IMG/VR virus record: IMGVR_UViG_3300027816_000069
Location: 32,001-96,000 of that record
DNA from: a virus
DNA length: 64,000 nucleotides
Strand: one strand, 5' to 3'
A program made the position numbers and the translations under genes. Positions 5,945 to 49,022 of this stretch are shown in pieces; within the stretch, counting starts at the first letter, position 1; every line of letters begins with the position of its first letter. The notes under the pieces are model-generated. The model was given only the letters and a program-made list of their open reading frames with translations, was not told the DNA's origin and made no database searches.

Positions 5945-5988
5945 CTGCCAAAATGGCAGGCCGGCCGGCCCATCTGCCAAAATGGCAG
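5945..5988. repeat. tandem dyad repeat, copy 1
   Basis: CTGCCAAAATGGCAG-gccggccggcccat-CTGCCAAAATGGCAG. Confidence 0.95.
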
Positions 5989-5991
5989 TCG

Positions 5992-6008
5992 AGCAAACCG
6001 TGTGCCAA
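5992..6008 (-). promoter_or_regulatory. sigma54-like box
   Basis: TTGGCACACGGTTTGCT, adjacent to dyad copy 1. Confidence 0.55.
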
Positions 6009-6040
6009 ATAAAAATATTTTTTCCGTTGATTTTTTTTGA

Positions 6041-6067
6041 TTGACAAGCCGATAATTCTGGTATAAT
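6041..6067 (+). promoter_or_regulatory. early promoter TTGACA..GCCGATAA..TATAAT
   Basis: ttgacaagccgataattctggtataat. Confidence 0.7.
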
Positions 6068-6092
6068 CAAGGCATCACAAGGGAGAAAAGTT

Positions 6093-6287
6093 ATGCTTCA
6101 CGATTTTGATGATGTGAATCGGATTCTGGCTGAGATGACGAGCGAGAACATGATCGAACCCATCGACGAGAGCGATTGTCACCCGATGGACTGGGCCGAA
6201 GTGACCGGGGTGCTGGACGATGTGCAGGATGAAATTTATCCCGAGCCCATGCTTGACGAAAACGGTGTTCTGTGGTATGTTAGTTGA
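6093..6287 (+). CDS. acidic hypothetical protein
   Basis: GGGAG RBS downstream of promoter. Confidence 0.7.
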   Translation: MLHDFDDVNRILAEMTSENMIEPIDESDCHPMDWAEVTGVLDDVQDEIYPEPMLDENGVLWYVS

Positions 6288-6300
6288 AAAGGAAAAAATA

Positions 6301-6552
6301 ATGAGCAAAGGTCATGATGAATTGGCCGAATATCTTTACAATAATAAAGAGGATACTGATATGTACTATCATGATGACACTACCGACCCTAACTATGATG
6401 ATCATGAGGATTTTTACAGTGATTCATTTGATGATGATATGGATGGCGATGTGGAAACTGGCCTCGCTTCCGCCGGATGGGGAACCGATGAGGACTACGG
6501 GTATTATGGTGATGATACCCCGATGAGCGACGATTACTATGGTGGAGAATAA
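6301..6552 (+). CDS. highly acidic hypothetical protein
   Basis: D/Y-rich with LASAGWGTDEDYG motif. Confidence 0.7.
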   Translation: MSKGHDELAEYLYNNKEDTDMYYHDDTTDPNYDDHEDFYSDSFDDDMDGDVETGLASAGWGTDEDYGYYGDDTPMSDDYYGGE

Positions 6553-6556
6553 TAAC

Positions 6557-6853
6557 ATGCCAAAGATTAGTGTTAAGGATTGGATTAAGTCTTATATGTC
6601 ACAACCAGAGGAAAAGAAAATGATGAACGTTATCGTAACTCACACGGATACTTTTGGTGGAGAGGCTAATTATGGATGGGTGAAGCGTCACGAGTTTACT
6701 ATTCACAAGCATGCGTCACAGCGTAATATTACTCGAAAGGTTAAGGCTTTGGCCGGAATGACCGGTGTTAAGAGTGATACGTTTGATTATGATGTTGGTC
6801 TTACTATTAAGCCTAGGGGTTATAATCAAGTTATTTTCGTAGATTTTGAATAG
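6557..6853 (+). CDS. hypothetical protein
   Basis: TDTFGGEANYGWV motif; start may be 6620. Confidence 0.7.
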   Translation: MPKISVKDWIKSYMSQPEEKKMMNVIVTHTDTFGGEANYGWVKRHEFTIHKHASQRNITRKVKALAGMTGVKSDTFDYDVGLTIKPRGYNQVIFVDFE

Positions 6854-6865
6854 GAGGAACCCGAT

Positions 6866-6909
6866 CTGCCAAAATGGCAGGCGGGCCGGCCGATCTGCCA
6901 AAATGACAC
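6866..6909. repeat. tandem dyad repeat, copy 2
   Basis: CTGCCAAAATGGCAG-14nt-CTGCCAAAATGACAC. Confidence 0.95.
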
Positions 6910-6980
6910 CCTAATTTTTTCTCTTGACTATTCAAGTTCGGCCTGTAGAATACCGATAACACTAGTAGGAGAAAAAGAAA

Positions 6981-7205
6981 ATGGTTGACGGATACCAGAA
7001 AATCTATAAGTTTGACAATGGTTTTGGGGCCAGTGTGGTTTCTCATAGTGGCTCATATGGAGGAAAAGAGGGTTTGTTTGAGATTGCTATTCTTGATAAG
7101 AATGATCAAATTAGTTATGATACCTTTATTACTGGTGATGTAATTGGATGGCTTGATTTTGCTGGCGTGGCCGATATTCTGGAAAGAATTAAGAATCTTG
7201 CTTGA
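6981..7205 (+). CDS. conserved phage hypothetical protein
   Basis: FDNGFGASVV..GLFEIAI..DVIGWL. Confidence 0.75.
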   Translation: MVDGYQKIYKFDNGFGASVVSHSGSYGGKEGLFEIAILDKNDQISYDTFITGDVIGWLDFAGVADILERIKNLA

Positions 7206-7257
7206 CAAGTGTCGATAAGTAGAGTAGACTTACACTATACCACTAAGGGAAAAGACA

Positions 7258-7575
7258 ATGAATCACGCCGAAGCAATTAAGATGGTTCGTGGCAAGAGGA
7301 ACGCTGATCGTCGCAAGGTTGGCAACAATACCTATGCTGAAATTCTGCCGAATGGTAGTGTGGGAATTATGCTTCACAGTACCTATGTTGTACAGATTCA
7401 TCCTGACAATACCTACACCCTCAATAGTGGGGGCTGGCAAACGCTAACCACTAAGGATAGAATTAACCAGTATAGCCCGCGTCGAGTGTACCAGCGGAAT
7501 TTTGAATGGTTCGTGAAGATTAACGATAAGGAATATCCTTTTATGGATGGGATGGTGGTGGGTTGTCCCACCTAA
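7258..7575 (+). CDS. conserved phage hypothetical protein
   Basis: LNSGGWQTLTTKDRIN motif; promoter at 7202. Confidence 0.75.
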   Translation: MNHAEAIKMVRGKRNADRRKVGNNTYAEILPNGSVGIMLHSTYVVQIHPDNTYTLNSGGWQTLTTKDRINQYSPRRVYQRNFEWFVKINDKEYPFMDGMVVGCPT

Positions 7576-7613
7576 CCCTTCGGGTTCGGCTGGGGTGGCT
7601 GTAGTCAGCCAAA
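7564..7613 (+). repeat. TGT...GTAGTCAGC motif, copy 1
   Basis: TGT-to-GTAG offset is 37 nt in all four copies. Confidence 0.7.
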
Positions 7614-7618
7614 AATAC

Positions 7619-7660
7619 TAAAGTTTGAAACGTTGACAAGCCGATAGATAAAGGTAGAAT
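7619..7660 (+). promoter_or_regulatory. overlapping sigma28-like and sigma70 promoter
   Basis: TAAAG..GCCGATAG overlapping TTGACA..TAGAAT. Confidence 0.65.
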
Positions 7661-7892
7661 GGTGCAGAAATGGAGGTTGTTATGGGTCATCTTGCTGGGC
7701 TTTTGATCTTGGTCATTTTTTGTGGGTTTATTGTGGGTATTATTGGGGTGGCTGCTGATCTTAATGATTGAATAAATAAAAGGAATTCAAGGATGAATTT
7801 TGACCCCTATAATTTTGTGTGTGGTTTTATTGTAGCCTTATTGTTGTGCTATAGTGTGGCCGATCTGGTTTTTTCCACTAAGGATAATAGTA

Positions 7893-8180
7893 ATGAAATT
7901 GACGACTAAGGAAATCGTTTTTCTTGCTTGCGTGTTTGTGGTTGGTTGTTTTTGTGCTTTTTATGCTAATACCAGCATTAAGCATGATACTCCCGCAGAG
8001 TTTTTGAACGAAAAGCCAATGGAGCCGCCGAAGGTAGAATTTGAACAGGAACCTAGTGGGGTTTCATATAATGATCCCGAATTGAAAATTGTTGAAGTTA
8101 TGTATACTAGTGAACAGGAAGGAATTCATACTGTTAAGGTGGCCTCATGCCGAGGATGTCACTGGAAATGCTGCCAATAA
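7893..8180 (+). CDS. hypothetical membrane-anchored protein
   Basis: N-terminal hydrophobic helix. Confidence 0.6.
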   Translation: MKLTTKEIVFLACVFVVGCFCAFYANTSIKHDTPAEFLNEKPMEPPKVEFEQEPSGVSYNDPELKIVEVMYTSEQEGIHTVKVASCRGCHWKCCQ

Positions 8181-8214
8181 GGCAGCTCGGCCGGCCAACA
8201 TGCCAAAATGGCAG
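8171..8214. repeat. tandem dyad repeat, copy 3
   Basis: CTGCCAATAAGGCAG-14nt-ATGCCAAAATGGCAG. Confidence 0.9.
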
Positions 8215-8290
8215 TCAAAAAAATTTTTAAGTATTGCTTGACAACTGCCGATATCTAGTGTAGAATCAGCAAACACGAAAGGAAAAGAAC

Positions 8291-8530
8291 ATGACCTACA
8301 ACGGCTTCAAGAATTACGAAACGTGGAATGTTGTGCTGTGGATCAATAACGATGAGGGTCTGTATAATCTGGCTCGCCAGTGCGTATCCTATGATGAGTT
8401 TGTGGATTGTATGAAAGATTTGGGTGGTGAGATTGGATATCAAACGCCCGATGGTGTGGCTTGGAATGATTCTGGCATCGACCGTGAAAGCGTGAATCGG
8501 GATTGGGTTCAGGATTTTGTTGAAGTGTAG
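8291..8530 (+). CDS. conserved phage hypothetical protein
   Basis: YNG.KNYETWNV.LWINNDEGLY..TPDGV. Confidence 0.75.
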   Translation: MTYNGFKNYETWNVVLWINNDEGLYNLARQCVSYDEFVDCMKDLGGEIGYQTPDGVAWNDSGIDRESVNRDWVQDFVEV

Positions 8531-8592
8531 GCTTGACTTTTGACGATCATGGGTTAGACTATGGAAAAGGTTTTTCAAAACGAAAGGGTTTC

Positions 8593-9003
8593 ATGATGAA
8601 TGAAGTGATTATTGGTGCTATTGCTGCTGTGGTATTGGTTGCTGGTCTTCTGTCGTTTGCTGGTTTTCATGTGTATGGTGGCGTTAAGGATAGTCTGACC
8701 AATGCACGGGTTGGTCGAGTATACAACTTTGAGTATATTCAGCCCGTGACGGGTGATCCTGAGCGATTTATGGCTAAGGTGCTGGATGTTCATGAGTTTT
8801 CCGCTGATTATCTGGCTAGACTGAATGCGGTGAGTAGGTATCGTAGGTATGATCCTAACTTTGAGCGTAGCCGCCATATGGTGACGGCCCAAACGCCAGA
8901 TGGTAAGATTAGGAACTTTTACGCTGAACGCACCCGCAATGTTCGTCGGCCACTCCTTGGTGGGGTAGCCTTCCGAACAGGGCTGGCTGAACTGCTGTCC
9001 TGA
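8593..9003 (+). CDS. hypothetical membrane-anchored protein
   Basis: N-terminal TM; promoter at 8533. Confidence 0.7.
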   Translation: MMNEVIIGAIAAVVLVAGLLSFAGFHVYGGVKDSLTNARVGRVYNFEYIQPVTGDPERFMAKVLDVHEFSADYLARLNAVSRYRRYDPNFERSRHMVTAQTPDGKIRNFYAERTRNVRRPLLGGVAFRTGLAELLS

Positions 9004-9020
9004 AAAGATGTTCCATCGCA

Positions 9021-9051
9021 AGCCCGTCCTAGGAAACCCCTAGGGCGGGCT
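9021..9051 (+). terminator. GC-rich hairpin after gene
   Basis: AGCCCGTCCTAGG-aaacc-CCTAGGGCGGGCT. Confidence 0.6.
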
Positions 9052-9061
9052 GATGGAGTTT

Positions 9062-9105
9062 CTGCCAAAACGGCAGGCGGGCCGGCCGATCTGCCATAAT
9101 GGCAG
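9062..9105. repeat. tandem dyad repeat, copy 4
   Basis: CTGCCAAAACGGCAG-14nt-CTGCCATAATGGCAG. Confidence 0.95.
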
Positions 9106-9234
9106 GAAATTTCTTGTGGATTTTGTCTCTTGACAAGCCGATACTAGAGTGTAGAATGATAGAGTCACCAACAAAAATCCGATTCATTCGGTGTTATACG
9201 CTTGACAAGTCGAGAACGTATGCTATATTGGTGA

Positions 9235-9827
9235 CACAAACTTTCGTGGGTCCATGCGGCGGGACTAGATTGGGATAACCTATTTCGATAAACTTTCTCT
9301 GAAAGACTGGGGGAGTTGCCAACGGGGTTATACGTTGGATAGAAGTACCAATCTATGGGGGATGGCGTCCTCACCACGACCAATACTTTATGGGTGACGG
9401 TTTTCCGTATGACGAGGCAAAGCACAGCGGAGCGAAGGGGAGTTACCGGTGACGAACCTTCCACGCGGCCTCCCAAACTGCGAAAGCAGGAGTAGAAATA
9501 GGTGACACCCATAAACAATATTATGGTTCCTAGATAATAGGTTAGGATTAAAAACGTTCGCCCTTCCCATCCTTTGTGATAGGCTAAAAACGTTGCCATA
9601 TACAATACAACCAGTAACCGTTTCTAAGAGCCAGACCAAATAGGGTTATATGCGCAATACCACCTTATTTGCAGGGAGGATTTCCGTGGACGGTTTTCAT
9701 AGAATCGGGGCGTAAAAGATTCGCTGGTTACAAATCTGCTGATAGTTTCCCTTAGATAAGGTAAAACCTTGAGGTTGAACGGATCAGTACCGAGAGGCTG
9801 TTCGTAAAACTATCGGCGGTCGGTACT
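9235..9827 (+). ncRNA. large structured ncRNA (~590 nt), family unassigned
   Basis: promoters at 9130 and 9202, no credible ORF, many long-range helices, GNRA hairpin, 3' pseudoknot. Confidence 0.75.
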
Positions 9828-9860
9828 TGACTTGATGATAAAGAATGGTAGAATAGTTTT

Positions 9861-10061
9861 ATGAAAATCATACCAAAACAAAACGCACGAAAGTGGACAA
9901 AAGAACGGCTGAAACGTCATCCGGGTCTTTGGAAGGTTGAGCAGGATGCTAAGAGTGTTCCTTGCTGGCCGGGCGAAGATGCTATTTTGATGAAAAATTT
10001 GACTGATGGTTGGAGTGGCTGGTTTCCGATAAAAGATATTGACATAGCCGGTCAGGAATGA
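9861..10061 (+). CDS. hypothetical protein
   Basis: ORF after promoter at 9827. Confidence 0.6.
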   Translation: MKIIPKQNARKWTKERLKRHPGLWKVEQDAKSVPCWPGEDAILMKNLTDGWSGWFPIKDIDIAGQE

Positions 10062-10277
10062 TAGAATACTGAAATGACACTGCAAGAGTTTCTGGATGAG
10101 TTTCTTGATCCAAAGTTTCAAGAGATGATGAAGATTGTGGAAAAAGTCTTAGAGAAAAAAAATGAGAGTATTTCGTAAAATAATTCTGTTTTTCCCATCT
10201 TTAACCATGTTCTTTTTGGCATACTTTACTTTTATTTGTGATAACGAGGCTACTAAATTTAGTTTTAGGTGGAAATA

Positions 10278-10505
10278 ATGACCGTTAATGAACTTATTGA
10301 GATGTTGAAGAATTATCCGGGCGATATGAGGGTATTGACTCTTGGGTATGAGGGTGGGTATAATGATATTAGATTGGACAATAATGATATTGTATTTGAT
10401 GTCCAACGCGGTGAAGGGGCTTGGTATTATGGGCCTCATGAGTGCGTGGAGTTTACAGATGAGAAAACTGGTACAAAGTGCTTAATTATTGCTAGGACGA
10501 AATGA
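10278..10505 (+). CDS. hypothetical protein
   Basis: MTVNELIEMLKNYPGDMRV..GYEGG, a common phage pattern. Confidence 0.7.
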   Translation: MTVNELIEMLKNYPGDMRVLTLGYEGGYNDIRLDNNDIVFDVQRGEGAWYYGPHECVEFTDEKTGTKCLIIARTK

Positions 10506-10565
10506 ACTGGCATTATGGACAACCTAATGTAATGAGATTGGTCTAAATCCTTATAAGAAATAACA

Positions 10566-10748
10566 ATGAAAACTGAAACTCTTGAACTGACTAAGACTGA
10601 ACTTGATTATCTTCTGAGTGTTGTTCATGAACATATTGACTCTGGTGTTTCATGGGGTAATTGGGGGGGTAGTCATGCTCAGTTTGTAAAGATGCAAAAT
10701 AGAGTTTTGGAAAAGATTGAGGAAGCCAAAACTGGTAGTGTGTCCTAA
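10566..10748 (+). CDS. hypothetical protein
   Basis: ORF in tiled run. Confidence 0.55.
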   Translation: MKTETLELTKTELDYLLSVVHEHIDSGVSWGNWGGSHAQFVKMQNRVLEKIEEAKTGSVS

Positions 10749-10793
10749 AAATGGTTCTATTATGCCAGAGTATTATCTGCAAAAGGAATAGGT

Positions 10794-11033
10794 ATGGAAT
10801 GGATTAGTTTTTTTGATCGTCAACCAGAAGACGGGCAAAAGATTTGGTATTATGGAAAATATATTGGTGTGTGGGTTGGTATATACCATTATTCTCCAAA
10901 TGATCCTGTAAGTCCTCATATTATTTTATGCGACGAGGCTCCCGGCGTTGTGGATCGTATGGATGCCCCGTATTGGCAACCTTACAGACCAGCAAAACCA
11001 GAGAAAGATTACCCAAAGGATTATCCATCATGA
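10794..11033 (+). CDS. DUF551-like hypothetical protein
   Basis: MEWIS..DRQPE..YWQPY. Confidence 0.6.
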   Translation: MEWISFFDRQPEDGQKIWYYGKYIGVWVGIYHYSPNDPVSPHIILCDEAPGVVDRMDAPYWQPYRPAKPEKDYPKDYPS

Positions 11034-11203
11034 TTGACAATAAAGATAAGGCGTTGATTTATGTGATTAACTTTTTTAACTCTCGTATGAGTGCCATGAA
11101 TAAGAATAATATAGAGAGAACTAAAGAATTAATCTCTACTCATAAAATTAGTGCTAGTGAACTTGTGGATAAGTATGTGAAATTAGTATATGAAAACTCT
11201 TAG
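11030..11203 (+). CDS. hypothetical protein
   Basis: ATGA overlap with upstream gene. Confidence 0.55.
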   Translation: MIDNKDKALIYVINFFNSRMSAMNKNNIERTKELISTHKISASELVDKYVKLVYENS

Positions 11204-11315
11204 TGATATTTGTCCATGTGGCGCTTGTGATGTGCTAGTATGGAAATATGATGATAATGGTTTAATCTGGTTATTTTGCCAGCAATGCCACTGGTGGTAT
11301 ATCGGAAACGATTAA

Positions 11316-11359
11316 CCGCCAAAATGGCAGGCTGGCCGGCCGATCTGCCAAAATGGCAT
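11316..11359. repeat. tandem dyad repeat, copy 5
   Basis: CCGCCAAAATGGCAG-14nt-CTGCCAAAATGGCAT. Confidence 0.9.
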
Positions 11360-11424
11360 TCTTTTTTTCTTAAGAATACTCTTGACAGACGCCGATCATA
11401 GGAGTATACTTAATACACAACCAT

Positions 11425-11507
11425 GCCGCTGTGGTGGAATTGGCATACACATGACACTTAAAATGTCACGCCTTATAGGCTTGCGAGTTCAAGTCTCGCC
11501 AGCGGTA
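11425..11507 (+). tRNA. tRNA-Leu(TAA)
   Basis: cloverleaf; anticodon arm TGACA-ctTAAaa-TGTCA; long variable arm. Confidence 0.92.
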
Positions 11508-11567
11508 TTCTTTTTAGTCCGAATTGTAAACGCTCTATATAGTAGACACCAAAGCGTTTGAAATATT

Positions 11568-11617
11568 TGTTTTTCCCAATCCTTCGGATTTGGCTGGTGT
11601 GGCTGTAGTCAGCGAAA
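11568..11617 (+). repeat. TGT...GTAGTCAGC motif, copy 2
   Basis: ccaatccttcggatttggctggtgtggctgtagtcagcg. Confidence 0.7.
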
Positions 11618-11690
11618 GTTTAAAGGTCTTGACAAGGTTTGGTCGATAAGGTATAATAGAAACAACAAGACGCATAACTAAAGCGAAATA

Positions 11691-11775
11691 CCCCGATGTT
11701 CCACACGACTGACTGTAAATCAGTTGACATATTATGTGTGGCGGCTGTCAAGTGGTTCAACTCCTCCATCGGGGA
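11691..11775 (+). tRNA. atypical D-armless tRNA-Tyr(GTA)-like RNA
   Basis: CCCCGAT/ATCGGGG acceptor, ACTGA-ctGTAaa-TCAGT, TTCAACT loop; own promoter at 11629. Confidence 0.6.
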
Positions 11776-11819
11776 TTAAAGGTCTTGACAAGCACTAGCC
11801 GATAAGATATACTACAAGC

Positions 11820-12233
11820 ATGAAACAGAAACCACTACATGCCGAAGTTCGATTCCATCTTGGTAAAGGTCAGTTTTTTAAGCATTGGCAAATCAAGATT
11901 GTACAAGGAAAAGAGAAGGTTGATGTTTACTATTGTGATCCTGCCTATTATCAATTAGAGATGATTGGGTGCAAATTAATCAATAAGGTTAATCAGGCTA
12001 AAAAGGTTCATGAGGCTGGCGTTAAGGATGTTACGGGGTGGGTTGAGTGTAGGGATGTTAGAATAAATAATGAAGTAGGGGTTGACAATCTTGAGAAATT
12101 ATACTACAATCCGTTGAGAGATCCGCACTGGCGTCGTGAAAGCGACAATAACGAGTTCATTTGGGATAATAGTGAATACGCTACTCTACTAACTAACGGC
12201 AAACAAGTTTATATTTTGGAAGAAAGGGTTTGA
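11820..12233 (+). CDS. hypothetical protein
   Basis: 137-aa ORF, apparently leaderless after promoter at 11785. Confidence 0.7.
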   Translation: MKQKPLHAEVRFHLGKGQFFKHWQIKIVQGKEKVDVYYCDPAYYQLEMIGCKLINKVNQAKKVHEAGVKDVTGWVECRDVRINNEVGVDNLEKLYYNPLRDPHWRRESDNNEFIWDNSEYATLLTNGKQVYILEERV

Positions 12234-12235
12234 AT

Positions 12236-12607
12236 ATGATCAAGTTGGAACTGACGGTTCGTGAGGCTATGAATCTGGCGACGAACTGCCACCTCGATAT
12301 CTATGAGCGGATTGTGGCCGCTTTTGAGGTTGCGTTGGGTGTGAACCAGCACAGGATGGTTACTATCACCGCTGGCATGACTCTTGATAACCGTGTTCCT
12401 TGTATCAAGGCTATCCGACTCCACGCCGGCTGGGGTTTTAAGGAGGCAAAGGAGTGGACGGATTTTCTGGTTGGCGGCTGGAAGTACGACAAGTGGCATC
12501 CTGCTTCTCCCAACGCCAAGCAGAGCATCACCCTCAAGACTCCGGAAGCGGCCGAGAATCTGCTGCGTGATCTGACCACTTTGGGTTGTGAGGGTTTTCT
12601 CTCATGA
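12236..12607 (+). CDS. ribosomal protein L7/L12 C-terminal-domain-like protein
   Basis: RVPCIKAIRLHAGWGFKEAKEW..EAAENLLRDLTTLG resembles KI.VIK.VR..TGLGLKEAK. Confidence 0.6.
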   Translation: MIKLELTVREAMNLATNCHLDIYERIVAAFEVALGVNQHRMVTITAGMTLDNRVPCIKAIRLHAGWGFKEAKEWTDFLVGGWKYDKWHPASPNAKQSITLKTPEAAENLLRDLTTLGCEGFLS

Positions 12608-12619
12608 TCCAAACCCTGT

Positions 12620-12663
12620 CTGCCAAAATGGCAGCGGGGCCGGGCGATCTGCCAAAATGACAG
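12620..12663. repeat. tandem dyad repeat, copy 6
   Basis: CTGCCAAAATGGCAG-14nt-CTGCCAAAATGACAG. Confidence 0.95.
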
Positions 12664-12846
12664 CATAAAAAATTCATGTATGATACTTGACAATGCCGAT
12701 GCTTAGTGTAGAATGATGTTATCACGAGACAAGACGCTGGTTGACTGCAACACAAAAAAGTTCAACCCAGCACTTGACAAGTGACGATAAGTGATGTATG
12801 ATTCGTTTATTGGTGGTTGATAACTCTTTTGGGAAAGGTTTTTACT

Positions 12847-13104
12847 ATGCGTACTTATGATTTTGCGGTTGCTGTTGCGTCGGACACTCTTGATACGGAA
12901 GTGGTTGAGGATACGATTCGTCAGGCTCTTGCCGATGGTCTGCCCGATGGTACTCTTGTGGTGGTCAAGGCCCAGGGTATCAAGGACTATAGCGAGCAGG
13001 GCTGGAAGGTTGCCCGTAATCGCAAGTTCGGTGTGAGTGTCAAGGAAGCCGGTGACGGTCACAAGGCTAAGACTACTAAGGTTGAGGCGGAGACTGTTGG
13101 CTGA
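12847..13104 (+). CDS. hypothetical protein
   Basis: promoter at 12774, AAAGG RBS. Confidence 0.7.
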   Translation: MRTYDFAVAVASDTLDTEVVEDTIRQALADGLPDGTLVVVKAQGIKDYSEQGWKVARNRKFGVSVKEAGDGHKAKTTKVEAETVG

Positions 13105-13170
13105 ACACGGTTCGGGAGTTATAATGTCCGATAGACCGCTGGTGGACGCACTGGCGGCTATCGGTATTTC

Positions 13171-13242
13171 GGCCCCATAGTTAAAAGGATATAACACGGG
13201 ATTTCTAATCCTGTATTAGAGGTTCGATTCCTCTTGGGGCTA
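13171..13242 (+). tRNA. tRNA-Arg(TCT)
   Basis: cloverleaf; CGGGA-ttTCTaa-TCCTG. Confidence 0.9.
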
Positions 13243-13246
13243 TTTA

Positions 13247-13320
13247 GGGAGCGTAGATCAATCGGTTAGATCGCCAGCCTGTCACGCTGGAGGTTGCGGG
13301 TTCGAGTCCCGTCGCTCTCG
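13247..13320 (+). tRNA. tRNA-Asp(GTC)
   Basis: cloverleaf; CCAGC-ctGTCac-GCTGG. Confidence 0.95.
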
Positions 13321-13323
13321 CTT

Positions 13324-13367
13324 CTGCCAAAATGGCAGGCTCCGCGGCCGAACTGCCAAAATGGCAG
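13324..13367. repeat. tandem dyad repeat, copy 7
   Basis: two perfect 15-mers with a 14-nt spacer. Confidence 0.95.
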
Positions 13368-13441
13368 TTAAAATTTTGTGGATTCTTTCTCTTGACAAGC
13401 CGATAACGTAGTGTAGAATCACTAGCACAAGGGAGATAACC

Positions 13442-14146
13442 ATGAAAACTGCTGATGGTAACGACAAGTTGGGTAAGGGTTGCATTGTGGTTTCGCGTCC
13501 TGTTGGCGACACTTGCCCGTCAACGTGCGACTTTCTCAATAATGGCTGCTATGCCGAAGCCACCGAGAATCAGTATAAGAACGCTCGCACCGCGGGCTTT
13601 GCTAATGTTATTACCGAAAAGCATAAGATTCGTGCTATGATTCTTGATGCTATCAAGCGTAATAAAAGCATCCGCTGGCATGAGCGTGGCGATTGGTTTC
13701 TCAACGGCGAACTTGATACCAACTATGTTGAGAATGTAACGTGGGCGTGTGAGAGTGTTCTGGCCGATGGTATTAGTCTGCCTAATATGTGGTTTTATAC
13801 TCATATCTACGATAGTCGGCTTGTTGTACTGGAAAAGTATATGGCCGTCTATGCTAGTATTCATAATGCAGAAGATAGGGCTGCTGCGGTGTCTGCCGGT
13901 TTTAAGTTGTTTGCGTGGTGCGATAGTGATACTAAGATTGCTCCCAAGCGTCCAAAGAGTAAGGCCAAGGCCGATGCGTGGCGTAAGGCTTTGCCTAAAC
14001 TGGTAATTATCGAAGATGTCAAGTATGTTGTTTGCCCCGAGATTCGTCGTGGTCGATCAGTTATTACTTGTACTGGTACTAAGGATAGTATTAGTTGTGA
14101 TATGTGCGTCAAGGGTTTGGCTAACGTACTATTTCCTGCCCACTAA
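13442..14146 (+). CDS. GP88-like (radical-SAM-related) phage protein
   Basis: TCP..C......CYA, IRWH..GD, C-terminal CP...CDMC. Confidence 0.6.
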   Translation: MKTADGNDKLGKGCIVVSRPVGDTCPSTCDFLNNGCYAEATENQYKNARTAGFANVITEKHKIRAMILDAIKRNKSIRWHERGDWFLNGELDTNYVENVTWACESVLADGISLPNMWFYTHIYDSRLVVLEKYMAVYASIHNAEDRAAAVSAGFKLFAWCDSDTKIAPKRPKSKAKADAWRKALPKLVIIEDVKYVVCPEIRRGRSVITCTGTKDSISCDMCVKGLANVLFPAH

Positions 14147-14158
14147 AAGGATATAACA

Positions 14159-14401
14159 ATGGCTAAGTATTATGTTAATAGTGGTACGCTTCAAGTGATT
14201 ATGGACCATAGTGATCCTCTTGAGGCTGGAGTGGCCGGATTCCTAATGACTAACAAGATGGATACAATAGATGAGTATTTTTATATTGATGAGCGTGGTT
14301 TTCGTGATTATGTCAGTGCTGATAATGGTACTAACGTAATTCCTACTTCTAGCATTATTCGTGCCGCCGAATCCGAATTGACGGATGACACTCTGCCATA
14401 A
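14159..14401 (+). CDS. hypothetical protein
   Basis: AAGGA RBS; stop lies within dyad copy 8. Confidence 0.7.
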   Translation: MAKYYVNSGTLQVIMDHSDPLEAGVAGFLMTNKMDTIDEYFYIDERGFRDYVSADNGTNVIPTSSIIRAAESELTDDTLP

Positions 14402-14436
14402 TGGCAGGGCGGCCGGGCGATCTGCCAAAACGGCAG
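14393..14436. repeat. tandem dyad repeat, copy 8
   Basis: CTGCCATAATGGCAG-14nt-CTGCCAAAACGGCAG. Confidence 0.95.
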
Positions 14437-14501
14437 TTAAGTTTCTGGTACGATTGGCCGATAATTCTTTCATGGACAAGGGTTTGACAAGGAGGGTTAA
14501 T

Positions 14502-14864
14502 ATGCTACAATGGATTGGCGTTGCGTTGACTGCTGCTGCTTTGGTGTATACGGGTGTTAAGGATTATCAAAAAGGGGATATAAAAATTCCTCCCCTAAAT
14601 AAAAATTTGACAACTCCTAAGTATCCTGTACAATATTGTTTAATGGCGTATGACCCTAACCTAGATAGGATTTTTTACCTTCACGAAAACGGACAATGGT
14701 ATGATCATCCCCCACAACAACGACGATATGCGGCCACGTCGCAAGTACAACAGTATCAAAATCAAAACCAAGCAGCGGTGGGAACTTCCTACGGGTCACA
14801 GGGAGGAGCGGTATACGGTTATGGACAATCGGCCCAAGCGTCAACGTACCCGCAGCGATATTGA
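14502..14864 (+). CDS. hypothetical membrane-anchored protein
   Basis: AGGAGG RBS, N-terminal TM, Q/Y-rich tail. Confidence 0.65.
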   Translation: MLQWIGVALTAAALVYTGVKDYQKGDIKIPPLNKNLTTPKYPVQYCLMAYDPNLDRIFYLHENGQWYDHPPQQRRYAATSQVQQYQNQNQAAVGTSYGSQGGAVYGYGQSAQASTYPQRY

Positions 14865-14895
14865 CAGGAAGTGGCGTAAGGAGTATGATATATAG
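14728..14895 (+). CDS. small basic protein (overlapping frame)
   Basis: MRPRRKY..DNRPKRQRTRSDIDRKW. Confidence 0.45.
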   Translation: MRPRRKYNSIKIKTKQRWELPTGHREERYTVMDNRPKRQRTRSDIDRKWRKEYDI

Positions 14896-14976
14896 GTTAT
14901 TCTTGGTTTGAGTCATGACAAATCGAGAAGATAGTTTATGAGGGTATTCTATCTTTAAATAAAAACTATCCTCTTT

Positions 14977-15049
14977 GCCGGTATAACTCAGTTAGCAGAG
15001 TGTCAAATTTGTAATTTGAATGTCGTGGGTGCAAATCCTACTACCGGCT
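14977..15049 (+). tRNA. tRNA-Thr(TGT)
   Basis: TCAAA-ttTGTaa-TTTGA. Confidence 0.9.
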
Positions 15050-15082
15050 CTAGGAATTGAAATAAAAAACGGTGAATAATGC

Positions 15083-15155
15083 TGCCCGGTAGCTTAACTG
15101 GTAAAGCTGTTGACTTTGGATCAACTGAGTCTAGGTTCGAATCCTAGCCGGGCAT
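15083..15155 (+). tRNA. tRNA-Gln(TTG)
   Basis: GTTGA-ctTTGga-TCAAC. Confidence 0.92.
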
Positions 15156-15164
15156 ATGATTTAT

Positions 15165-15236
15165 ACACGGGTAGCATAATGGTAATGCCCCAAACTGTTA
15201 ATTTGTCAGATGTAGGTTCGAATCCTACCCCGTGTG
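15165..15236 (+). tRNA. tRNA-Asn(GTT)
   Basis: CAAA-ctGTTaa-TTTG; acceptor ACACGGG/CCCGTGT. Confidence 0.85.
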
Positions 15237-15245
15237 CTTAGTTTG

Positions 15246-15316
15246 ATTGGCGTAGTTCAACGGTAGAACGACGGTCTCCAAAACCGTAGATGGGGGTTCG
15301 ATTCCCTCCGCCTTTG
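15246..15316 (+). tRNA. tRNA-Trp(CCA)
   Basis: ACGGT-ctCCAaa-ACCGT; two acceptor mismatches. Confidence 0.8.
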
Positions 15317-15318
15317 TT

Positions 15319-15405
15319 GGAATCTTGGCCGAGTGGTTTAAGGCAGCGGTTTACTAAGCCGCCGAGGGTTAAAATCCTCCACAGGTTCGAATCCTGTAGA
15401 TTCCG
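15319..15405 (+). tRNA. tRNA-Ser(ACT)
   Basis: GCGGT-ttACTaa-GCCGC, long variable arm, G73. Confidence 0.88.
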
Positions 15406-15407
15406 TT

Positions 15408-15487
15408 GGTGGATTTCCAGAGCGGCAAATGGGCCTGACTGTAGATCAGGTGCTTCGGCTTCGGGGGTTCGAGTCCCTCATCCACCA
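15408..15487 (+). tRNA. tRNA-Tyr(GTA)
   Basis: CCTGA-ctGTAga-TCAGG. Confidence 0.92.
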
Positions 15488-15537
15488 CTAAACTTTTACT
15501 TGACAACGGTCGATAACAAGGTATAATCCCACAACAC

Positions 15538-15613
15538 GGGGCGTAAGGTAAGCCGGTTGCATCCGTCACTCTTATAAGGTGATCTTAGGTACGTTCGACT
15601 CGTACACGCCCTA
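15538..15613 (+). tRNA. tRNA-Ile(TAT)
   Basis: TCACT-ctTATaa-GGTGA; atypical D arm; own promoter at 15500. Confidence 0.75.
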
Positions 15614-15652
15614 CTTATATGTTTCGGAGGCTGACGTTTGAGTTGCGAGTGT

Positions 15653-15725
15653 GGCCCTATCGTCTAACGGTTTAGGACTTCGGATTTTCGTTCCGAATAT
15701 CGGGGTTCGAATCCCCGTAGGGTCA
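15653..15725 (+). tRNA. tRNA-Glu(TTC)
   Basis: TCGGA-ttTTCgt-TCCGA. Confidence 0.9.
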
Positions 15726-15766
15726 CTTGACAAAACAATCTGGCGAGGTACAATAAGGCTAAATAC

Positions 15767-15839
15767 GGGTCATTAGCTCAATTGGCAGAGCAGCATCCTT
15801 TTAAGTTGTAGGTTGTAGGTTCGAGTCCTACATGACCCA
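15767..15839 (+). tRNA. tRNA-Lys(TTT)
   Basis: ctTTTaa loop; acceptor GGGTCAT/ATGACCC. Confidence 0.88.
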
Positions 15840-15887
15840 TTGACAGCGGACGGTGTTTGGTGTATAATGCGATTAAAGGAGAGTTTT

Positions 15888-16046
15888 ATGTTTCATGGCG
15901 AGTATGAGAATTATGAAGATATTGTAAAAGACTCAGACGAACTCTTTTCGTATGATGATGACCACAGTTATGAAACTAATCTCTACGATGAAAGAGAATG
16001 GGACAATTACTATCATATTTTGGCCGATGAAATAGTGGAAGAATAA
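15888..16046 (+). CDS. small acidic hypothetical protein
   Basis: AGGAG RBS; stop lies in the first attC-like R'' box. Confidence 0.6.
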   Translation: MFHGEYENYEDIVKDSDELFSYDDDHSYETNLYDEREWDNYYHILADEIVEE

Positions 16047-16134
16047 CACTCAGGACCAGGAGCGGCTCGCAGCCGCAGGAGGACGACATGATTTCAGACG
16101 TTGACGCGAGTCCGCTGCATCGTCTTGGTTCGCA
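16041..16134 (+). repeat. attC-like site 1 (degenerate or chimeric)
   Basis: GAATAAC...GCGGCTCGC / GCGAGTCCGCTGCATCG..GGTTCGC. Confidence 0.6.
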
Positions 16135-16459
16135 GAAGCAAAGGGGTAGCGAAATGCCGGTGTCTTGGAAGTTGGTAGAGAACTGCTCTGGTAAGGTTTT
16201 GCGGCGGTCAAAGAACCGCGTATTTGTTGCGGGCTGGCGTCGCGTCATTGGGGCAACGGTTGTGCCGGCGTGCATTCTCCCGTCAGTGGGCCAGCACGTG
16301 CGGTTCGGTTCTTTCGATTGGGAGGTAGTGCGTGTTGAGCAAGTTGAGTGCGACTACGACCCTTCTTATCTGTACCGCGTCGATCTTGTGATCCGCGACG
16401 AGAGCGGAAAGCCAGTAAACTTCGCGAGCGGAATATCAAACCTCTGCCTTGACGGCTGA
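16088..16459 (+). CDS. cassette protein 1, hypothetical
   Basis: AGGAGG RBS and ATG inside attC1; stop in attC2. Confidence 0.65.
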   Translation: MISDVDASPLHRLGSQKQRGSEMPVSWKLVENCSGKVLRRSKNRVFVAGWRRVIGATVVPACILPSVGQHVRFGSFDWEVVRVEQVECDYDPSYLYRVDLVIRDESGKPVNFASGISNLCLDG

Positions 16460-16505
16460 GAACGCCAGCGATCAGCGGCTCGTCCGCTGCGTCGCGTGGT
16501 TATGG
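16457..16505 (+). repeat. attC-like site 2
   Basis: TGAGAAC gcca GCGATCAGCGG ctcgt CCGCTG c GTCGC gtg GTTATGG. Confidence 0.85.
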
Positions 16506-16515
16506 AGACACACAC

Positions 16516-16683
16516 ATGACAATCACTCAAATAATCGGCGTTGCACTGACCTCATCCCCATTTGCGGGCGTTGCGGTGTTGTGCCACATGCACGGCGGCT
16601 GGCCCGCCGTTGCTGTAGTGTTTGGGGCGACCGGAGCCGTTGTTGCTGTTATCGCACTTGGGTGCCGACTTCTGGTTACATAA
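16516..16683 (+). CDS. cassette protein 2, 55-aa membrane protein
   Basis: GGAG RBS; MTITQIIGVALTSS..VVAVIALGCRLLVT; stop in attC3; below the ORF-track cutoff. Confidence 0.7.
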   Translation: MTITQIIGVALTSSPFAGVAVLCHMHGGWPAVAVVFGATGAVVAVIALGCRLLVT

Positions 16684-16766
16684 CGGCTGCGATCAGCGGC
16701 ATCGAACACAGGAGCGACCATGACGAAAGAGGTAGATGAGATGTCCGCTGCATCGCGTGGTTCTGC
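16678..16766 (+). repeat. attC-like site 3
   Basis: ACATAAC ggct GCGATCAGCGGCATC...GATGTCCGCTGCATCGC gtg GTTCTGC. Confidence 0.85.
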
Positions 16767-17019
16767 GGTGATGGCCTACGCCGTGATTGACGACGAGGGC
16801 GTGCAGCACTCGCTGTGGTTTCTGGAAAAGGACGCGACGAGCGAGGCCGCGATGGTCGGTGGGACTGTGGTGCGGCTTGGCCACCCCACGCTCACCGACG
16901 AGGAGCGGGAGGCGTTGGAGTACGGCATTAGGCAAGCCGACGAATACGACAGAGTAGGGCTTGAAGACGCAAAGCGCGCCGCAATTGTGTTTCGCGGCCT
17001 GCTGGAACGACTAGGCTGA
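16720..17019 (+). CDS. cassette protein 3 (LTDEERE family)
   Basis: start inside attC3 loop; stop in attC4. Confidence 0.75.
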   Translation: MTKEVDEMSAASRGSAVMAYAVIDDEGVQHSLWFLEKDATSEAAMVGGTVVRLGHPTLTDEEREALEYGIRQADEYDRVGLEDAKRAAIVFRGLLERLG

Positions 17020-17066
17020 GAACGCTTGCGATCTGCGGCGCAGTCCGCAGCATCGCGTGGTTCTCA
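17017..17066 (+). repeat. attC-like site 4
   Basis: TGAGAAC..GCGATCTGCGG cgcagt CCGCAG c ATCGC..GTTCTCA; compensatory change versus sites 2 and 3. Confidence 0.88.
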
Positions 17067-17083
17067 CAGGCATGGAGACAGAC

Positions 17084-17311
17084 ATGAGGCCGACACCAAT
17101 CGGACGGTTTGCTGACACGCCCTCATACGAGGAGTTGCAGCGAGAGGTTGCCCGCCTGCGGCTCACCGACGAGGAGCGGGAGGCGATTGAGCGGCTGTGC
17201 GAGGCCGCCAATGACATAATCTACGATGACAGGACGGCCGGTGGAAGCCACTGGCAAGAGGACGAGGCGGCGGTTGCTGTGGCTCGCGGCCTGCTGGAGC
17301 GGACGAAGTGA
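17084..17311 (+). CDS. cassette protein 4 (LTDEERE family)
   Basis: GGAG RBS; paralogous to cassette 3. Confidence 0.75.
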   Translation: MRPTPIGRFADTPSYEELQREVARLRLTDEEREAIERLCEAANDIIYDDRTAGGSHWQEDEAAVAVARGLLERTK

Positions 17312-17420
17312 GAACTCTTCTTCACGGATGCAACTTGGTGGGACAAGTATCTATTATAGGCAACTAGCCTTTCTTATTCCTTTCTTATACGTTCGAATCG
17401 TATCATCCGTGCTGTTATGA
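17309..17420 (+). repeat. attC-like site 5 (divergent)
   Basis: TGAGAAC..CACGGATG / CATCCGTG..GTTATGA. Confidence 0.45.
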
Positions 17421-17908
17421 ATATACTACATCAGAAACTAGAAGATCATCGAGTTACTCCAGACGGCCAATATATTAAGGGTTGTAGCCATACTACAAAA
17501 GTGCTAAATCATAAGCACAGAAATTCTATAATCATAAAGGCCATTTGTGATTTGCGTAAGATAACTGATGAGTTTGATAGTATAGCCTGCTGTGGTATTA
17601 GTGGTTTGATGGTTGTTCCACAAATTGCTGAACTGCTGAATAAACATATTATTGTTATTCGTAAGAAAAACGAGGAATGTTATTCAAATTTTTTTATGGA
17701 AGGTGTTACTCCTTGGAGGTACATAATAATTGACGACCTTATTTGTTCTGGCAATACTTTTAGGCATATCACAAGCACTATCTCAAATGACTACCGCAAG
17801 GCTCAGTGTGTAGGACTCTATTGCTATATGCCAGAAGAATGTTCATATAATAAAGATAATATTAAAGAATTTGAACGAAGATTCCGTACTCAACTATTAA
17901 ACGTCTAA
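17417..17908 (+). CDS. type I phosphoribosyltransferase
   Basis: PRPP-binding YIIIDDLICSGNT; IRK motif. Confidence 0.8.
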   Translation: MNILHQKLEDHRVTPDGQYIKGCSHTTKVLNHKHRNSIIIKAICDLRKITDEFDSIACCGISGLMVVPQIAELLNKHIIVIRKKNEECYSNFFMEGVTPWRYIIIDDLICSGNTFRHITSTISNDYRKAQCVGLYCYMPEECSYNKDNIKEFERRFRTQLLNV

Positions 17909-17925
17909 AAGGGGGTCCGCATATC

Positions 17926-17969
17926 CTGCCAAAACGGCAGGGCGGCCGGCCGATCTGCCAAAATGGCAG
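17926..17969. repeat. tandem dyad repeat, copy 9
   Basis: CTGCCAAAACGGCAG-14nt-CTGCCAAAATGGCAG. Confidence 0.95.
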
Positions 17970-18063
17970 AAAAAATTTCCTCAATTCTGGCTGTTGACAA
18001 GACGATATCATAGTGTAGAATCAGTGCATCGGAACGAAGAACGCTATCACGAAAGGGTTGACA

Positions 18064-19011
18064 ATGCCTGCTGCTGTTGAAAAGATGATGTTTGTTGGTG
18101 CTACGCCTTGGCACGGTCTGGGCAATCAGTTGGATGAGGCTCCGTCGATTGGCGAGGCGATTACCGCTGCTGGTTTGGATTGGGAAGTTGGATTGAAGGA
18201 CTTGCAGACTGTGGACGGTGTGCCGGTGTCGCATCGTGCAACGTACCGCAAGACTGATGGTAGCATCCTTGGAGTTGTGGGTCCGCGATATACTCCGCTC
18301 CAGAATCAGGATGCGTTTGATTGGTTCCAGCCTTTTCTGGATGCTGGCGAGTGCAATCTGCATACCGCCGGTTCGCTCCATAGTGGTCAAAAGGTTTGGG
18401 TGCTTGCTCAACTCAACCGCGACAATAGCGAAATTGTCAAGGGTGATGAGGTCTGCAAGTTTATTCTGCTGAGTAATAGTCACGATGGAACAACGGCTAT
18501 TCGTGTCGGATATACCCCGATCCGCGTGGTCTGCGTGAATACGCTGGCTGCTGCTCATCACAACAAGGCTAGCAAACTGATTCGGATTCGTCACACTCGC
18601 TCCAGCAAAAATAATCTGGATAATGTGCGTGATATTATGGACAATATCAACGCTGAGTTTGAGGCTACTGCCGATCAGTTCCGGTTTCTTGCTAGCAAGA
18701 GTTTCAACCAGAATGATGTTCGTCGATATGTCAAGACGGTGCTGGGCATCGAAGGTACGCCGGATGGCGATATCAAGACTCGCACCCGGAATATCATGGA
18801 CGAAATTCTTGCACTAATCGAAGGTCCGAAGCAGAGTGCTGCTGGGGTTCGTGGAACTTACTGGGCCGCTTATAACGGTTACAATGAGTACCTGAATTAT
18901 AACAAGGGTCGCACGACCGATAATCGGCTCGACTCTCTCTGGTTCGGTCAAAATGCTAATGATAATCTCAAGGCACTGAATGTGGCTATGGAGTTTGCTA
19001 ACGCGGTCTGA
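18064..19011 (+). CDS. DUF932/DUF945 phage-plasmid protein
   Basis: TPWHGLG, AGLDWEV, NSHDG, TPIRVVCVNTL, GTYWAAYN. Confidence 0.85.
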   Translation: MPAAVEKMMFVGATPWHGLGNQLDEAPSIGEAITAAGLDWEVGLKDLQTVDGVPVSHRATYRKTDGSILGVVGPRYTPLQNQDAFDWFQPFLDAGECNLHTAGSLHSGQKVWVLAQLNRDNSEIVKGDEVCKFILLSNSHDGTTAIRVGYTPIRVVCVNTLAAAHHNKASKLIRIRHTRSSKNNLDNVRDIMDNINAEFEATADQFRFLASKSFNQNDVRRYVKTVLGIEGTPDGDIKTRTRNIMDEILALIEGPKQSAAGVRGTYWAAYNGYNEYLNYNKGRTTDNRLDSLWFGQNANDNLKALNVAMEFANAV

Positions 19012-19036
19012 TTCTTCCTTTCGTGGCGTGATCGAA

Positions 19037-19070
19037 GCCGCCGTAGGGGCAACCCTGCGGCGGTTTTTTG
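19037..19070 (+). terminator. intrinsic terminator
   Basis: GCCGCCGTAGGG-gcaa-CCCTGCGGCGG-TTTTTT. Confidence 0.85.
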
Positions 19071-19078
19071 TCAATAGG

Positions 19079-19122
19079 CTGCCAAAATGGCAGGGCGGCC
19101 GGCCGGAATGCCAAAATGGCAG
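19079..19122. repeat. tandem dyad repeat, copy 10
   Basis: CTGCCAAAATGGCAG-14nt-ATGCCAAAATGGCAG. Confidence 0.95.
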
Positions 19123-49020: not shown

Positions 49021-49022
49021 CT

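Follow-up and report, generated by a model that had tools for sequence, protein, structure and literature searches.

Fis sites and the UP element of rrnB P1, the CRP sites of class I promoters and the p4 sites of phage phi29 are regulator sites located upstream of strong promoters. The KorB operator of plasmid RK2, OB, is one palindrome found in some twelve copies ahead of many promoters on a single replicon, which are thereby controlled in concert, and KorB is itself plasmid-encoded. Repetitive extragenic palindromic (REP) sequences and bacterial interspersed mosaic elements (BIMEs) are paired extragenic palindromes that follow stop codons, are conserved without covariation and are linked to RAYT transposases. 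In T4-type phages, the published passages that describe the PeSL element present it as a repeated intergenic motif of about 100 bp that flanks small genes in the plastic early region, recombination between its copies explaining insertions, deletions and reordering (PMC2839356, PMC4122927), and its stem-loop as an effective terminator (PMC2839356, 2010). Here we analyze a 44-bp tandem-dyad element (the dyad) that punctuates a 64,000-nucleotide stretch of viral DNA; this stretch (the window) comprises bases 32001-96000 of a 122,350-bp virus record (IMG/VR IMGVR_UViG_3300027816_000069, 88% complete), and the whole record is referred to as genome G000. Judged from its sequence, the dyad together with the promoter that follows it is a PeSL-like early-promoter cassette in a new, very abundant freshwater phage lineage without a cultured member.

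Ten tandem dyads of fixed geometry

When the window was searched for the 15-bp palindrome CTGCCAAAATGGCAG with up to two mismatches, 22 matches were obtained, compared with 0.12 expected from shuffled sequences. Twenty of these are plus-strand halves that form ten pairs, and the remaining two arise where near-perfect palindromes are also matched on the minus strand. The element is 44 bp long and consists of the 15-bp palindrome CTGCCAAAATGGCAG, a 14-nt GC-rich spacer and a second palindrome, with a start-to-start distance of 29 bp in 10/10 copies; the number, starts, spacer length and period given in the initial annotation were all reproduced by the mismatch search. The ten dyads span 13.2 kb, are all on the plus strand and constitute the complete set in the 122,350-bp record, in agreement with the earlier statement that no copy lies past 19.2 kb. 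No lone half-site was found in the record, even when three mismatches were allowed. The ten elements are as follows:

5945-5988, plus strand: dyad 1; two perfect palindromes, spacer GCCGGCCGGCCCAT
6866-6909, plus strand: dyad 2
8171-8214, plus strand: dyad 3; the distal palindrome variant CTGCCAATAAGGCAG contains the TAA of the open reading frame (ORF) at 7854-8180
9062-9105, plus strand: dyad 4; a separate GC-rich hairpin lies upstream at ~9024-9050
11316-11359, plus strand: dyad 5
12620-12663, plus strand: dyad 6
13324-13367, plus strand: dyad 7; two perfect palindromes, begins 3 nt past tRNA-Asp
14393-14436, plus strand: dyad 8; the distal palindrome variant CTGCCATAATGGCAG contains the TAA of ORF 14159-14401
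17926-17969, plus strand: dyad 9
19079-19122, plus strand: dyad 10; last in the cluster, with an intrinsic-terminator-like hairpin and T-run upstream at ~19040-19070

The motif GGCCGGCC is present in the spacers of seven of the ten elements. Across 76 copies from six genomes, the spacer has a GC content of 75%, rising to 92% in its central 8 nt, against a genome background of ~35%; its A/T-rich end is the 3' end in 44 copies and the 5' end in 25, the two ends being equal in 7. The distance from the end of the preceding ORF or tRNA to the dyad ranges from -9 to 113 nt among the ten window elements, and ORFs 7854-8180 and 14159-14401 terminate at a TAA (8178-8180 and 14399-14401) within the distal palindrome. 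The commonest A-to-T variants of the palindrome centre arise because the TAA stop of the upstream ORF is created there. A full-text literature search found no occurrence of the 15-mer CTGCCAAAATGGCAG.

The core pattern was found in 115 stretches of viral contigs, which hold more than 200 dyad copies. Five complete relatives (138-224 kb) contain 13, 14, 18, 8 and 14 copies, which in each genome are restricted to one strand and to one cluster of 13-20 kb. A 24-base version of the pattern gave a single match among 185,579 species genomes, on a 1.8-kb contig of a metagenome-assembled genome; the motif, for which candidate host genomes had been suggested as a place to look, is therefore essentially absent from cellular genomes.

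To describe the arms, 79 copies were collected by a position-symmetric search from six genomes, the proteins of which are mostly ~35-85% identical. The distal positions G2, C4, G10 and C12 and three of the four matching proximal positions are invariant in 79/79 copies, and the fourth is conserved in 78/79. A profile of 202 copies is consistent with this one, but its seed pattern biases the larger set. When spacing was not imposed, 74 of 86 neighbouring halves were exactly 29 bp apart and none were separated by 28 or 30 bp, the rest being third halves that follow a dyad; almost no single halves were seen in G000 and its relatives. In relative G004 the arms are kept although the spacers and proteins have diverged far. 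The invariant positions and the exact spacer length have been maintained while spacers and genomes diverged strongly, which suggests that the element itself is under purifying selection.

The dyad heads a promoter cassette

The dyad is the first component of a cassette of ~100 bp, in which it is followed by an A/T-rich linker of ~23-25 bp and by a near-consensus sigma70-type promoter (TTGACA-16/17-TAGAAT), the spacer of which usually contains CCGATA. When non-orthologous cassettes of different genomes were compared by blastn, the alignments began at element base 0 (+/-2) and ended near +95. The -35 hexamer begins 22-24 nt past the element in six of the ten window copies, and at +14, +47 and +52 after the dyads at 6866, 14393 and 5945, respectively. 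Among 198 distinct copies from viral contigs, 59 have a promoter (score >=10) 22-26 nt past the element, compared with 2 of 594 random anchors. Minor distance classes lie at 12-15 nt (11 copies) and at 50-55 nt (25 copies, with an additional module of ~29 nt between dyad and linker), and 51 copies have no promoter. The predicted promoters in the window are as follows:

6041-6067, plus strand: promoter of cassette 1; TTGACA, 15-nt spacer with CCGATA, TATAAT; 52 nt after dyad 1
6924-6951, plus strand: promoter of cassette 2; TTGACT-16-TAGAAT; 14 nt after dyad 2
8238-8266, plus strand: promoter of cassette 3; TTGACA-17-TAGAAT; 23 nt after dyad 3
9130-9157, plus strand: promoter of cassette 4; TTGACA-16-TAGAAT; 24 nt after dyad 4
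11382-11410, plus strand: promoter of cassette 5; TTGACA-17-TATACT; 22 nt after dyad 5, predicted to drive tRNA-Leu (11424-11508)
12687-12714, plus strand: promoter of cassette 6; TTGACA-16-TAGAAT; 23 nt after dyad 6
13392-13419, plus strand: promoter of cassette 7; TTGACA-16-TAGAAT; 24 nt after dyad 7
14484-14511, plus strand: promoter-like site of dyad 8; TTGACA-16-TACAAT; 47 nt after dyad 8
17994-18021, plus strand: promoter of cassette 9; TTGACA-16-TAGAAT; 24 nt after dyad 9, predicted to drive a DUF932 gene (18064-19011)
19161-19188, plus strand: weak promoter-like site after dyad 10

If transcription is assumed to start 7 nt after the -10 hexamer, the palindrome centres fall at ~-67 and ~-96 and the centre of the element near -81. 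The dyad region as a whole contains 79 promoter-like sites, compared with 35 expected; 20 plus-strand sites match at least 11 of the 12 promoter positions, of which 7 follow a dyad, and 13 strong promoters in the region have no dyad and share the same promoter consensus. From its host-type promoters, small genes and tRNAs, the dyad region is presumed to be an early region of rightward genes.

A CGATA word (mostly CCGATA) just after the -35 hexamer is common to 17 plus-strand promoters located from 4541 to 56374, well past the dyad region; a phage-encoded factor may recognise this word.

Relatives carry other palindromes at the same place

Of 14 long records whose capsid proteins are 87-91% identical to that of G000, 12, including five complete genomes, are without the dyad described above (type A). 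In G013, the orthologous early genes are present and their promoters are preceded by a composite element (type B), in which a left arm ending in ACTTAGGG is followed by a GC-rich core that closely resembles the type A core and then by the inverted repeat GACGTAAGT-N15-ACTTACGTC. A relaxed type B pattern yielded 41 copies in four genomes (10, 11, 12 and 8), the carriers being G013, G009, G014 and G007; the capsid proteins of the type B and hybrid relatives are 87-90% identical. In 38 aligned type B copies, 76.6% of cells were paired, compared with 25-40% when the partner was slid. Covariation within type B was considered and rejected, as changes on both sides numbered 11 versus 10.0 in shuffles and the paired fraction was 76.6% versus 76.8%.

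Genome G006 contains hybrids, in which a type A palindrome and core are joined to a type B arm, and also the reverse arrangement, which suggests that the arms act singly and need no pairing with each other. A hairpin of the form CCTTACG-N5-GTAAGG is located ~10 nt upstream of some -35 boxes in G006 and G013. Among phages whose capsid proteins are 87-93% identical, the dyad types form a mosaic. The types have one layout in common (palindrome, GC core, palindrome, A/T tract, promoter), and their arms are exchangeable.

Sequence recognition versus folded structure

Two accounts of the dyad were weighed most closely. In the first, which we prefer and hold tentatively, the arms dock a sequence-specific protein. 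In the second, which is possible although on the doubtful side, the dyad is a nucleic-acid structure, either folded RNA or extruded DNA, that would serve as an attenuator, insulator, 3'-end stabiliser or RNase site, with its arms kept uniform by concerted evolution. Each arm can form a hairpin (6-bp stem, 3-nt loop), and the 44-mers are predicted to fold on either strand (-22 to -27 kcal/mol, z -2.0 to -3.8). Like the PeSL stem-loop, the dyad lies between a stop codon or tRNA and the next promoter, and other inverted repeats (type B and CCTTACG-N5-GTAAGG) occupy the same place, so that palindromy is the common feature. A structural role would also agree with the failure to find a type-specific protein (see below) and with a preference of transitions for G.U pairs on the bottom strand.

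The pattern of substitutions speaks against a structural role, however. Among 84 altered stem pairs in the dyad arms, none were compensated, 9 gave G.U on the top strand, 44 gave G.U on the bottom strand only and 31 were plain mismatches, and covariation in type B was no higher than in shuffles. Neither the exact 29-bp period nor the GC-rich spacer, which is not complementary, would serve a purpose in a hairpin; the spacer was itself rejected as a hairpin, since it is not self-complementary (Watson-Crick fractions of 0.14-0.36 versus 0.25-0.49 for the null at six of seven positions). The dyad also does not look like an intrinsic terminator: only four of the ten dyads were flagged as terminator-like, terminator-like sites were not enriched (19 versus 14.5 expected), and downstream of most dyads an A-run comes before any T-run. 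Terminator-like hairpins of their own precede dyads 4 and 10, which indicates that the dyad is not required for termination at those sites. No Rfam family matched the dyads, and in the strongly diverged G004 the arms are nonetheless kept.

The dyad thus has the features of an operator pair, namely two dyad-symmetric sites at fixed spacing in which sequence rather than pairing is conserved. The invariant and uncompensated arms, the exact period, the non-pairing GC core and the separate hairpins at dyads 4 and 10 argue that the sequence is recognised in a fixed geometry, and together they favour docking of a sequence-specific protein on duplex DNA over a simple hairpin. The initial annotation had proposed cooperative binding sites for a dimer of dimers; the coupling to promoters, strict spacing and sequence conservation fit two cooperative dimers, whereas the NtrC and Fis families that it named do not fit. 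The cassettes head modules of genes and tRNAs where the rightward, presumed early region begins. Under the docking account, two dimers, held exactly 29 bp apart by a stiff 14-bp GC-rich core between the two palindromes, would read the invariant GCC/GGC triplets on duplex DNA. Bound at ~-67/-96, just upstream of the UP-like tract, the protein would modulate, silence or insulate these strong promoters, which would form a single regulon. It could be encoded by the host, or be a phage protein that is common to relatives without the dyad.

Search for a cognate protein

No Pfam DNA-binding family was detected at E <= 0.001 among the 135 ORFs of the window. ORFs of G000 and of the complete genome G001 were then scored as present or absent in complete relatives, five with and five without the dyad. 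Among the G000 ORFs, none was present in 5/5 of the former and 0/5 of the latter, and those scoring 4 and 0 were shadow ORFs lying over dyads. Among the G001 ORFs, a single real gene was confined to the complete genomes that bear the dyad, one for a SpoU-type RNA methyltransferase (Pfam E = 1.8e-21), which was set aside because it is missing from the syntenic place in G000, where a tmRNA (transfer-messenger RNA) gene is found instead. Two conserved proteins encoded within the cluster were likewise rejected; that at 8533-9003 has a membrane helix and that at 12817-13104 has no family match. The earlier remark that no cognate protein is evident in the window can be extended to the entire genome and to ten relatives.

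A 94-amino-acid (aa) protein encoded at 53720-54004 on the plus strand of the window matches Sigma70_r4_2 at E = 0.0016, below the family cut-off, and is 69-76% identical in 10/10 relatives. This protein is a candidate for a general transcription factor in the phage group.

Several observations weigh against protein docking. No real gene tracking the dyad was found in the G000 and G001 comparison, which covered phage ORFs of at least 40 aa, and in an allele-type test no core protein was closer among dyad-bearing genomes. The 94-aa protein was rejected as the binder, as the same helix-turn-helix is present in type A and type B phages. The 44-mers can fold, with the energies given above, and the excess of bottom-strand over top-strand G.U pairs is unexpected for a perfectly symmetric tetramer. 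Variation is also not mirror-symmetric, with 17 changes at position 9 versus 0 at position 34 and 21 at position 43 versus 4 at position 0. A period of 29 bp corresponds to 2.76 helical turns, so that the two palindromes would face different sides of the helix. Finally, the linker has the length of an UP element, and the fixed distance to the -35 hexamer may therefore reflect tight packing and not helical phasing with a bound protein.

Cassettes as seams of rearrangement

The order of dyad-bounded modules differs between G000 and the relatives G001, G002 and G005; examples are the module pair that follows dyads 1 and 2 (compared with G002 and G005) and the module 13324-14393 (compared with G001). 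All breaks of adjacency between protein-gene markers (9/9) fall at dyad junctions, and homology blocks terminate at 0/0 or at +42/+42 relative to element starts. Among the joints of more than 1 kb that were listed, 7/7 have an end in a cassette (contigs from four freshwater runs and four studies), and two of the seven start precisely at the element starts 13324 and 14393. Contig ends at dyads (e.g. 5953) were also considered as nick sites, an idea that was rejected because repeats have this effect on assemblies.

Integrase, resolvase and Y1 transposase were absent from 5/5 dyad-bearing genomes (tyrosine integrase PF00589, serine recombinase PF00239 and Y1 transposase PF01797, 0/5 each), and exchange is therefore presumably homologous and not site-specific. 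The comparison of genomes directly supports the view that the cassette is a seam at which related phages gain, lose and reorder modules by homologous recombination. The initial annotation had suggested recombination sites that shuffle modules; the gene-order maps, block ends and joints bear out the seam, but the lack of a recombinase argues against a site-specific mechanism. It had also proposed testing whether breakpoints of gene content in relatives coincide with the elements; the breaks of gene order do so for the protein-gene markers, whereas the overall difference is weak: adjacency is broken at 9 of 27 dyad-containing junctions versus 8 of 38 without, in three non-independent comparisons. 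All eight broken dyad-free junctions involve two tRNA genes. This overall count tells against the seam, as does the consideration that joints at repeats may be artefacts of assembly or alignment.

The same observations bear on the idea that the dyad, apart from supplying conserved homology, has no function of its own and is carried along, or persists selfishly, within a mobile promoter cassette spread by homologous recombination among co-infecting phages. This we consider unlikely. It would account for cassettes acting as rearrangement seams, for the mosaic of dyad types with its hybrids and for the failure to find a cognate protein; the position-specific invariance and exact spacer length, however, point to purifying selection, and the 13 strong promoters that share the consensus without a dyad indicate that recombination homology does not need the dyad.

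Sigma54-like boxes

NtrC-type enhancer sites are located ~80-150 bp upstream of a sigma54 promoter, and the sigma54 holoenzyme binds promoters as an inactive closed complex. The window contains three perfect copies of TGGCAC-N5-TTGC(A/T), at 4481-4496 (minus strand), 4856-4871 (plus strand) and 5992-6007 (minus strand). In 11 related genomes, 86 boxes with at most one mismatch were found, compared with 8 for the reversed pattern (a ratio of roughly ten), and 58 of the 86 are antisense to early genes. Fourteen boxes lie at +46 to +49 from a dyad start, and the extra module that follows dyad 1 (below) recurs at this distance in relatives. The boxes are 3-5 nt past the dyad on the opposite strand, which places the dyad on their transcribed side. 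Nine of the ten window dyads are without a box and are followed instead by sigma70-type promoters. The features concerned are as follows:

5992-6009, minus strand: extra module after dyad 1; the plus strand reads AGCAA-N5-GTGCCAAA, a perfect minus-strand TGGCAC-N5-TTGCT
4854-4891, strand not assigned: type C 38-bp palindrome with TGGCA/TGCCA words and two face-to-face sigma54-like boxes, ~30 nt upstream of the promoter at 4922-4949
4480-4498: type C half copy, upstream of the promoter at 4541-4568

The units at 4541-4600 and 4922-4980 have a near-identical promoter, leader and start codon.

The tenfold excess of boxes indicates that the sigma54-like motif is real. Its TGGCA/TGCCA word recurs in the arms of the dyad, and the GGC that is invariant in each arm corresponds to the core of the -24 element in the sigma54 consensus. 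The adjacent sigma54 box noted initially is thus a perfect match (5992-6007), but lies on the minus strand with the dyad on its transcribed side. Both PF00158 (Sigma54_activat) and PF04552 (sigma54 DNA-binding) were absent from the dyad-bearing phage genomes (0/5); the PF00158 search recovered 14/14 positive controls, although an activator might be encoded by the host. Given the geometry of the boxes and the lack of a sigma54 or activator domain in the phages, an enhancer reading is unsupported.

One conceivable role, which we regard as quite unlikely, is that immediate-early control regions are built from interchangeable TGGCA-type words, and that the dyads, the face-to-face palindrome and the antisense boxes together dock the host sigma54 holoenzyme, as a programmable insulator between cassettes or as a sponge that would disable sigma54-dependent host responses, with the arm families marking host factors or specificity groups. 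A related account, in our judgement very unlikely, is that the TGGCA/TGCCA words and the boxes dock host sigma54 or its holoenzyme as a roadblock, an insulator or a decoy that drains sigma54 from stress operons. The excess of boxes over the control, their antisense orientation, the 14 copies at +46 to +49 from a dyad start, the three perfect window copies and the GGC shared with the -24 element would all be in keeping with such docking; however, only one dyad of ten has a box, the arms are without a -12 element, the occurrence in both orientations and in a face-to-face palindrome is more operator-like than promoter-like, the host may lack sigma54, and the phages encode neither sigma54 nor an activator domain.

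The Fis site is a degenerate 15-bp sequence in which the centre is A/T-rich and the +/-7 positions are G and C. Hardly credible, finally, is the reading of the dyads as enhancer sites for an NtrC-family or Fis-type activator, or as site-specific recombinase sites, which was first suggested from tandem dyads (now placed at ~-67/-96) and from the box beside dyad 1: none of the activator, sigma54, integrase, resolvase or Y1 transposase domains is found in the five genomes, the box points away from the downstream gene, the downstream promoters are of sigma70 type, and, compared by eye with the Fis consensus, the arms carry C/G in reversed order at +/-7 and GCC/GGC in place of Y-A/T-R.

The phage and its lineage

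The record encodes rIIA/rIIB, RtcB, RNA and DNA ligases, a RuvB-like ATPase, ThyX, a sigma-factor-like protein, a terminase and a tape-measure protein of 2507 aa, and most of its structural proteins have no PHROG family match. A 15-kb megablast query gave no match in an annotated phage collection; by tblastn against the same collection, the best rIIA matches were less than 60% identical, and TerL was 22-26% identical to proteins of Bacillus and Clostridium siphophages. Relatives of the capsid protein were found on at least 596 viral contigs and, at E <= 1e-20, in 5530 of 8000 scored protein clusters; among the 120 capsid clusters listed, none has a name beyond "hypothetical protein" or a similar placeholder. 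The stretch is present in freshwater metagenome runs of 12 studies, and no RNA run is among the 23 runs listed as containing it. In the Pfam scan of the window ORFs, few ORFs within the dyad stretch matched any family, and gene content there differs between relatives.

The tape-measure-like protein is encoded at 7734-15257 of genome G000 (minus strand); its counterparts in G001, G002, G004 and G005 are 3949-5389 aa long, and the matches to tape-measure families are confined to the first ~500 residues. The tmRNA gene is located at window positions 48666-49023 (plus strand; Rfam RF00023, 97 bits, E = 1.7e-38) and was not called by ARAGORN; its 3' end overlaps the annotated start of an endonuclease VII-like ORF (48996-49367). 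Within a cluster of 12 tRNAs, the ARAGORN predictions include tRNA-Ser (anticodon ACT, 15318-15406) and tRNA-Ile (anticodon TAT, 15538-15614), both unusual anticodons.

Comparison with known systems

The phage lineage is common in freshwater metagenomes and has almost no annotated early genes. A 44-bp element that is kept across proteomes ~35-85% identical would offer a handle on the start of infection, as it defines a set of putative co-regulated immediate-early promoters; it also offers a bait for the regulator and perhaps for the host.

The arrangement of a core promoter, an A/T tract at ~-40 to -60 and dimer-sized palindromes further upstream is shared with the Fis, CRP and p4 systems, although the dyad sequence does not appear to fit any of these consensuses. 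The KorB operator likewise is a repeated palindrome that precedes many promoters, whereas here no element-specific phage protein was found. REP and BIME sequences resemble the dyad in being paired, sequence-conserved palindromes after stop codons without covariation; they differ in that the dyad is linked to promoters at a fixed distance, is virtually absent from cellular genomes and is not accompanied by a Y1 transposase (5/5 genomes). NtrC enhancers have in common with the dyad the tandem dyads and the nearby sigma54-like boxes, but the geometry is wrong and no activator is encoded.

The likeness to PeSL extends to a palindromic or GC-rich element, an A/T-rich tract, a promoter of sigma70 consensus, a plastic region of small genes and points of exchange. 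In the published passages that describe it, PeSL is a generic polyG/polyC stem-loop, whereas the dyad is a strict pair of 15-bp palindromes with a 29-bp period and a non-pairing GC core; the dyad is also unlike an intrinsic terminator, and near relatives carry alternative arm families and hybrids. Further, the carrier is not T4-type by its structural genes, TerL and long tape measure, though rIIA/rIIB are present. The comparison shows that cassettes of the PeSL kind that double as seams exist beyond the T4-type phages, here with exchangeable palindrome tags, which bears on the natural shuffling of accessory genes.

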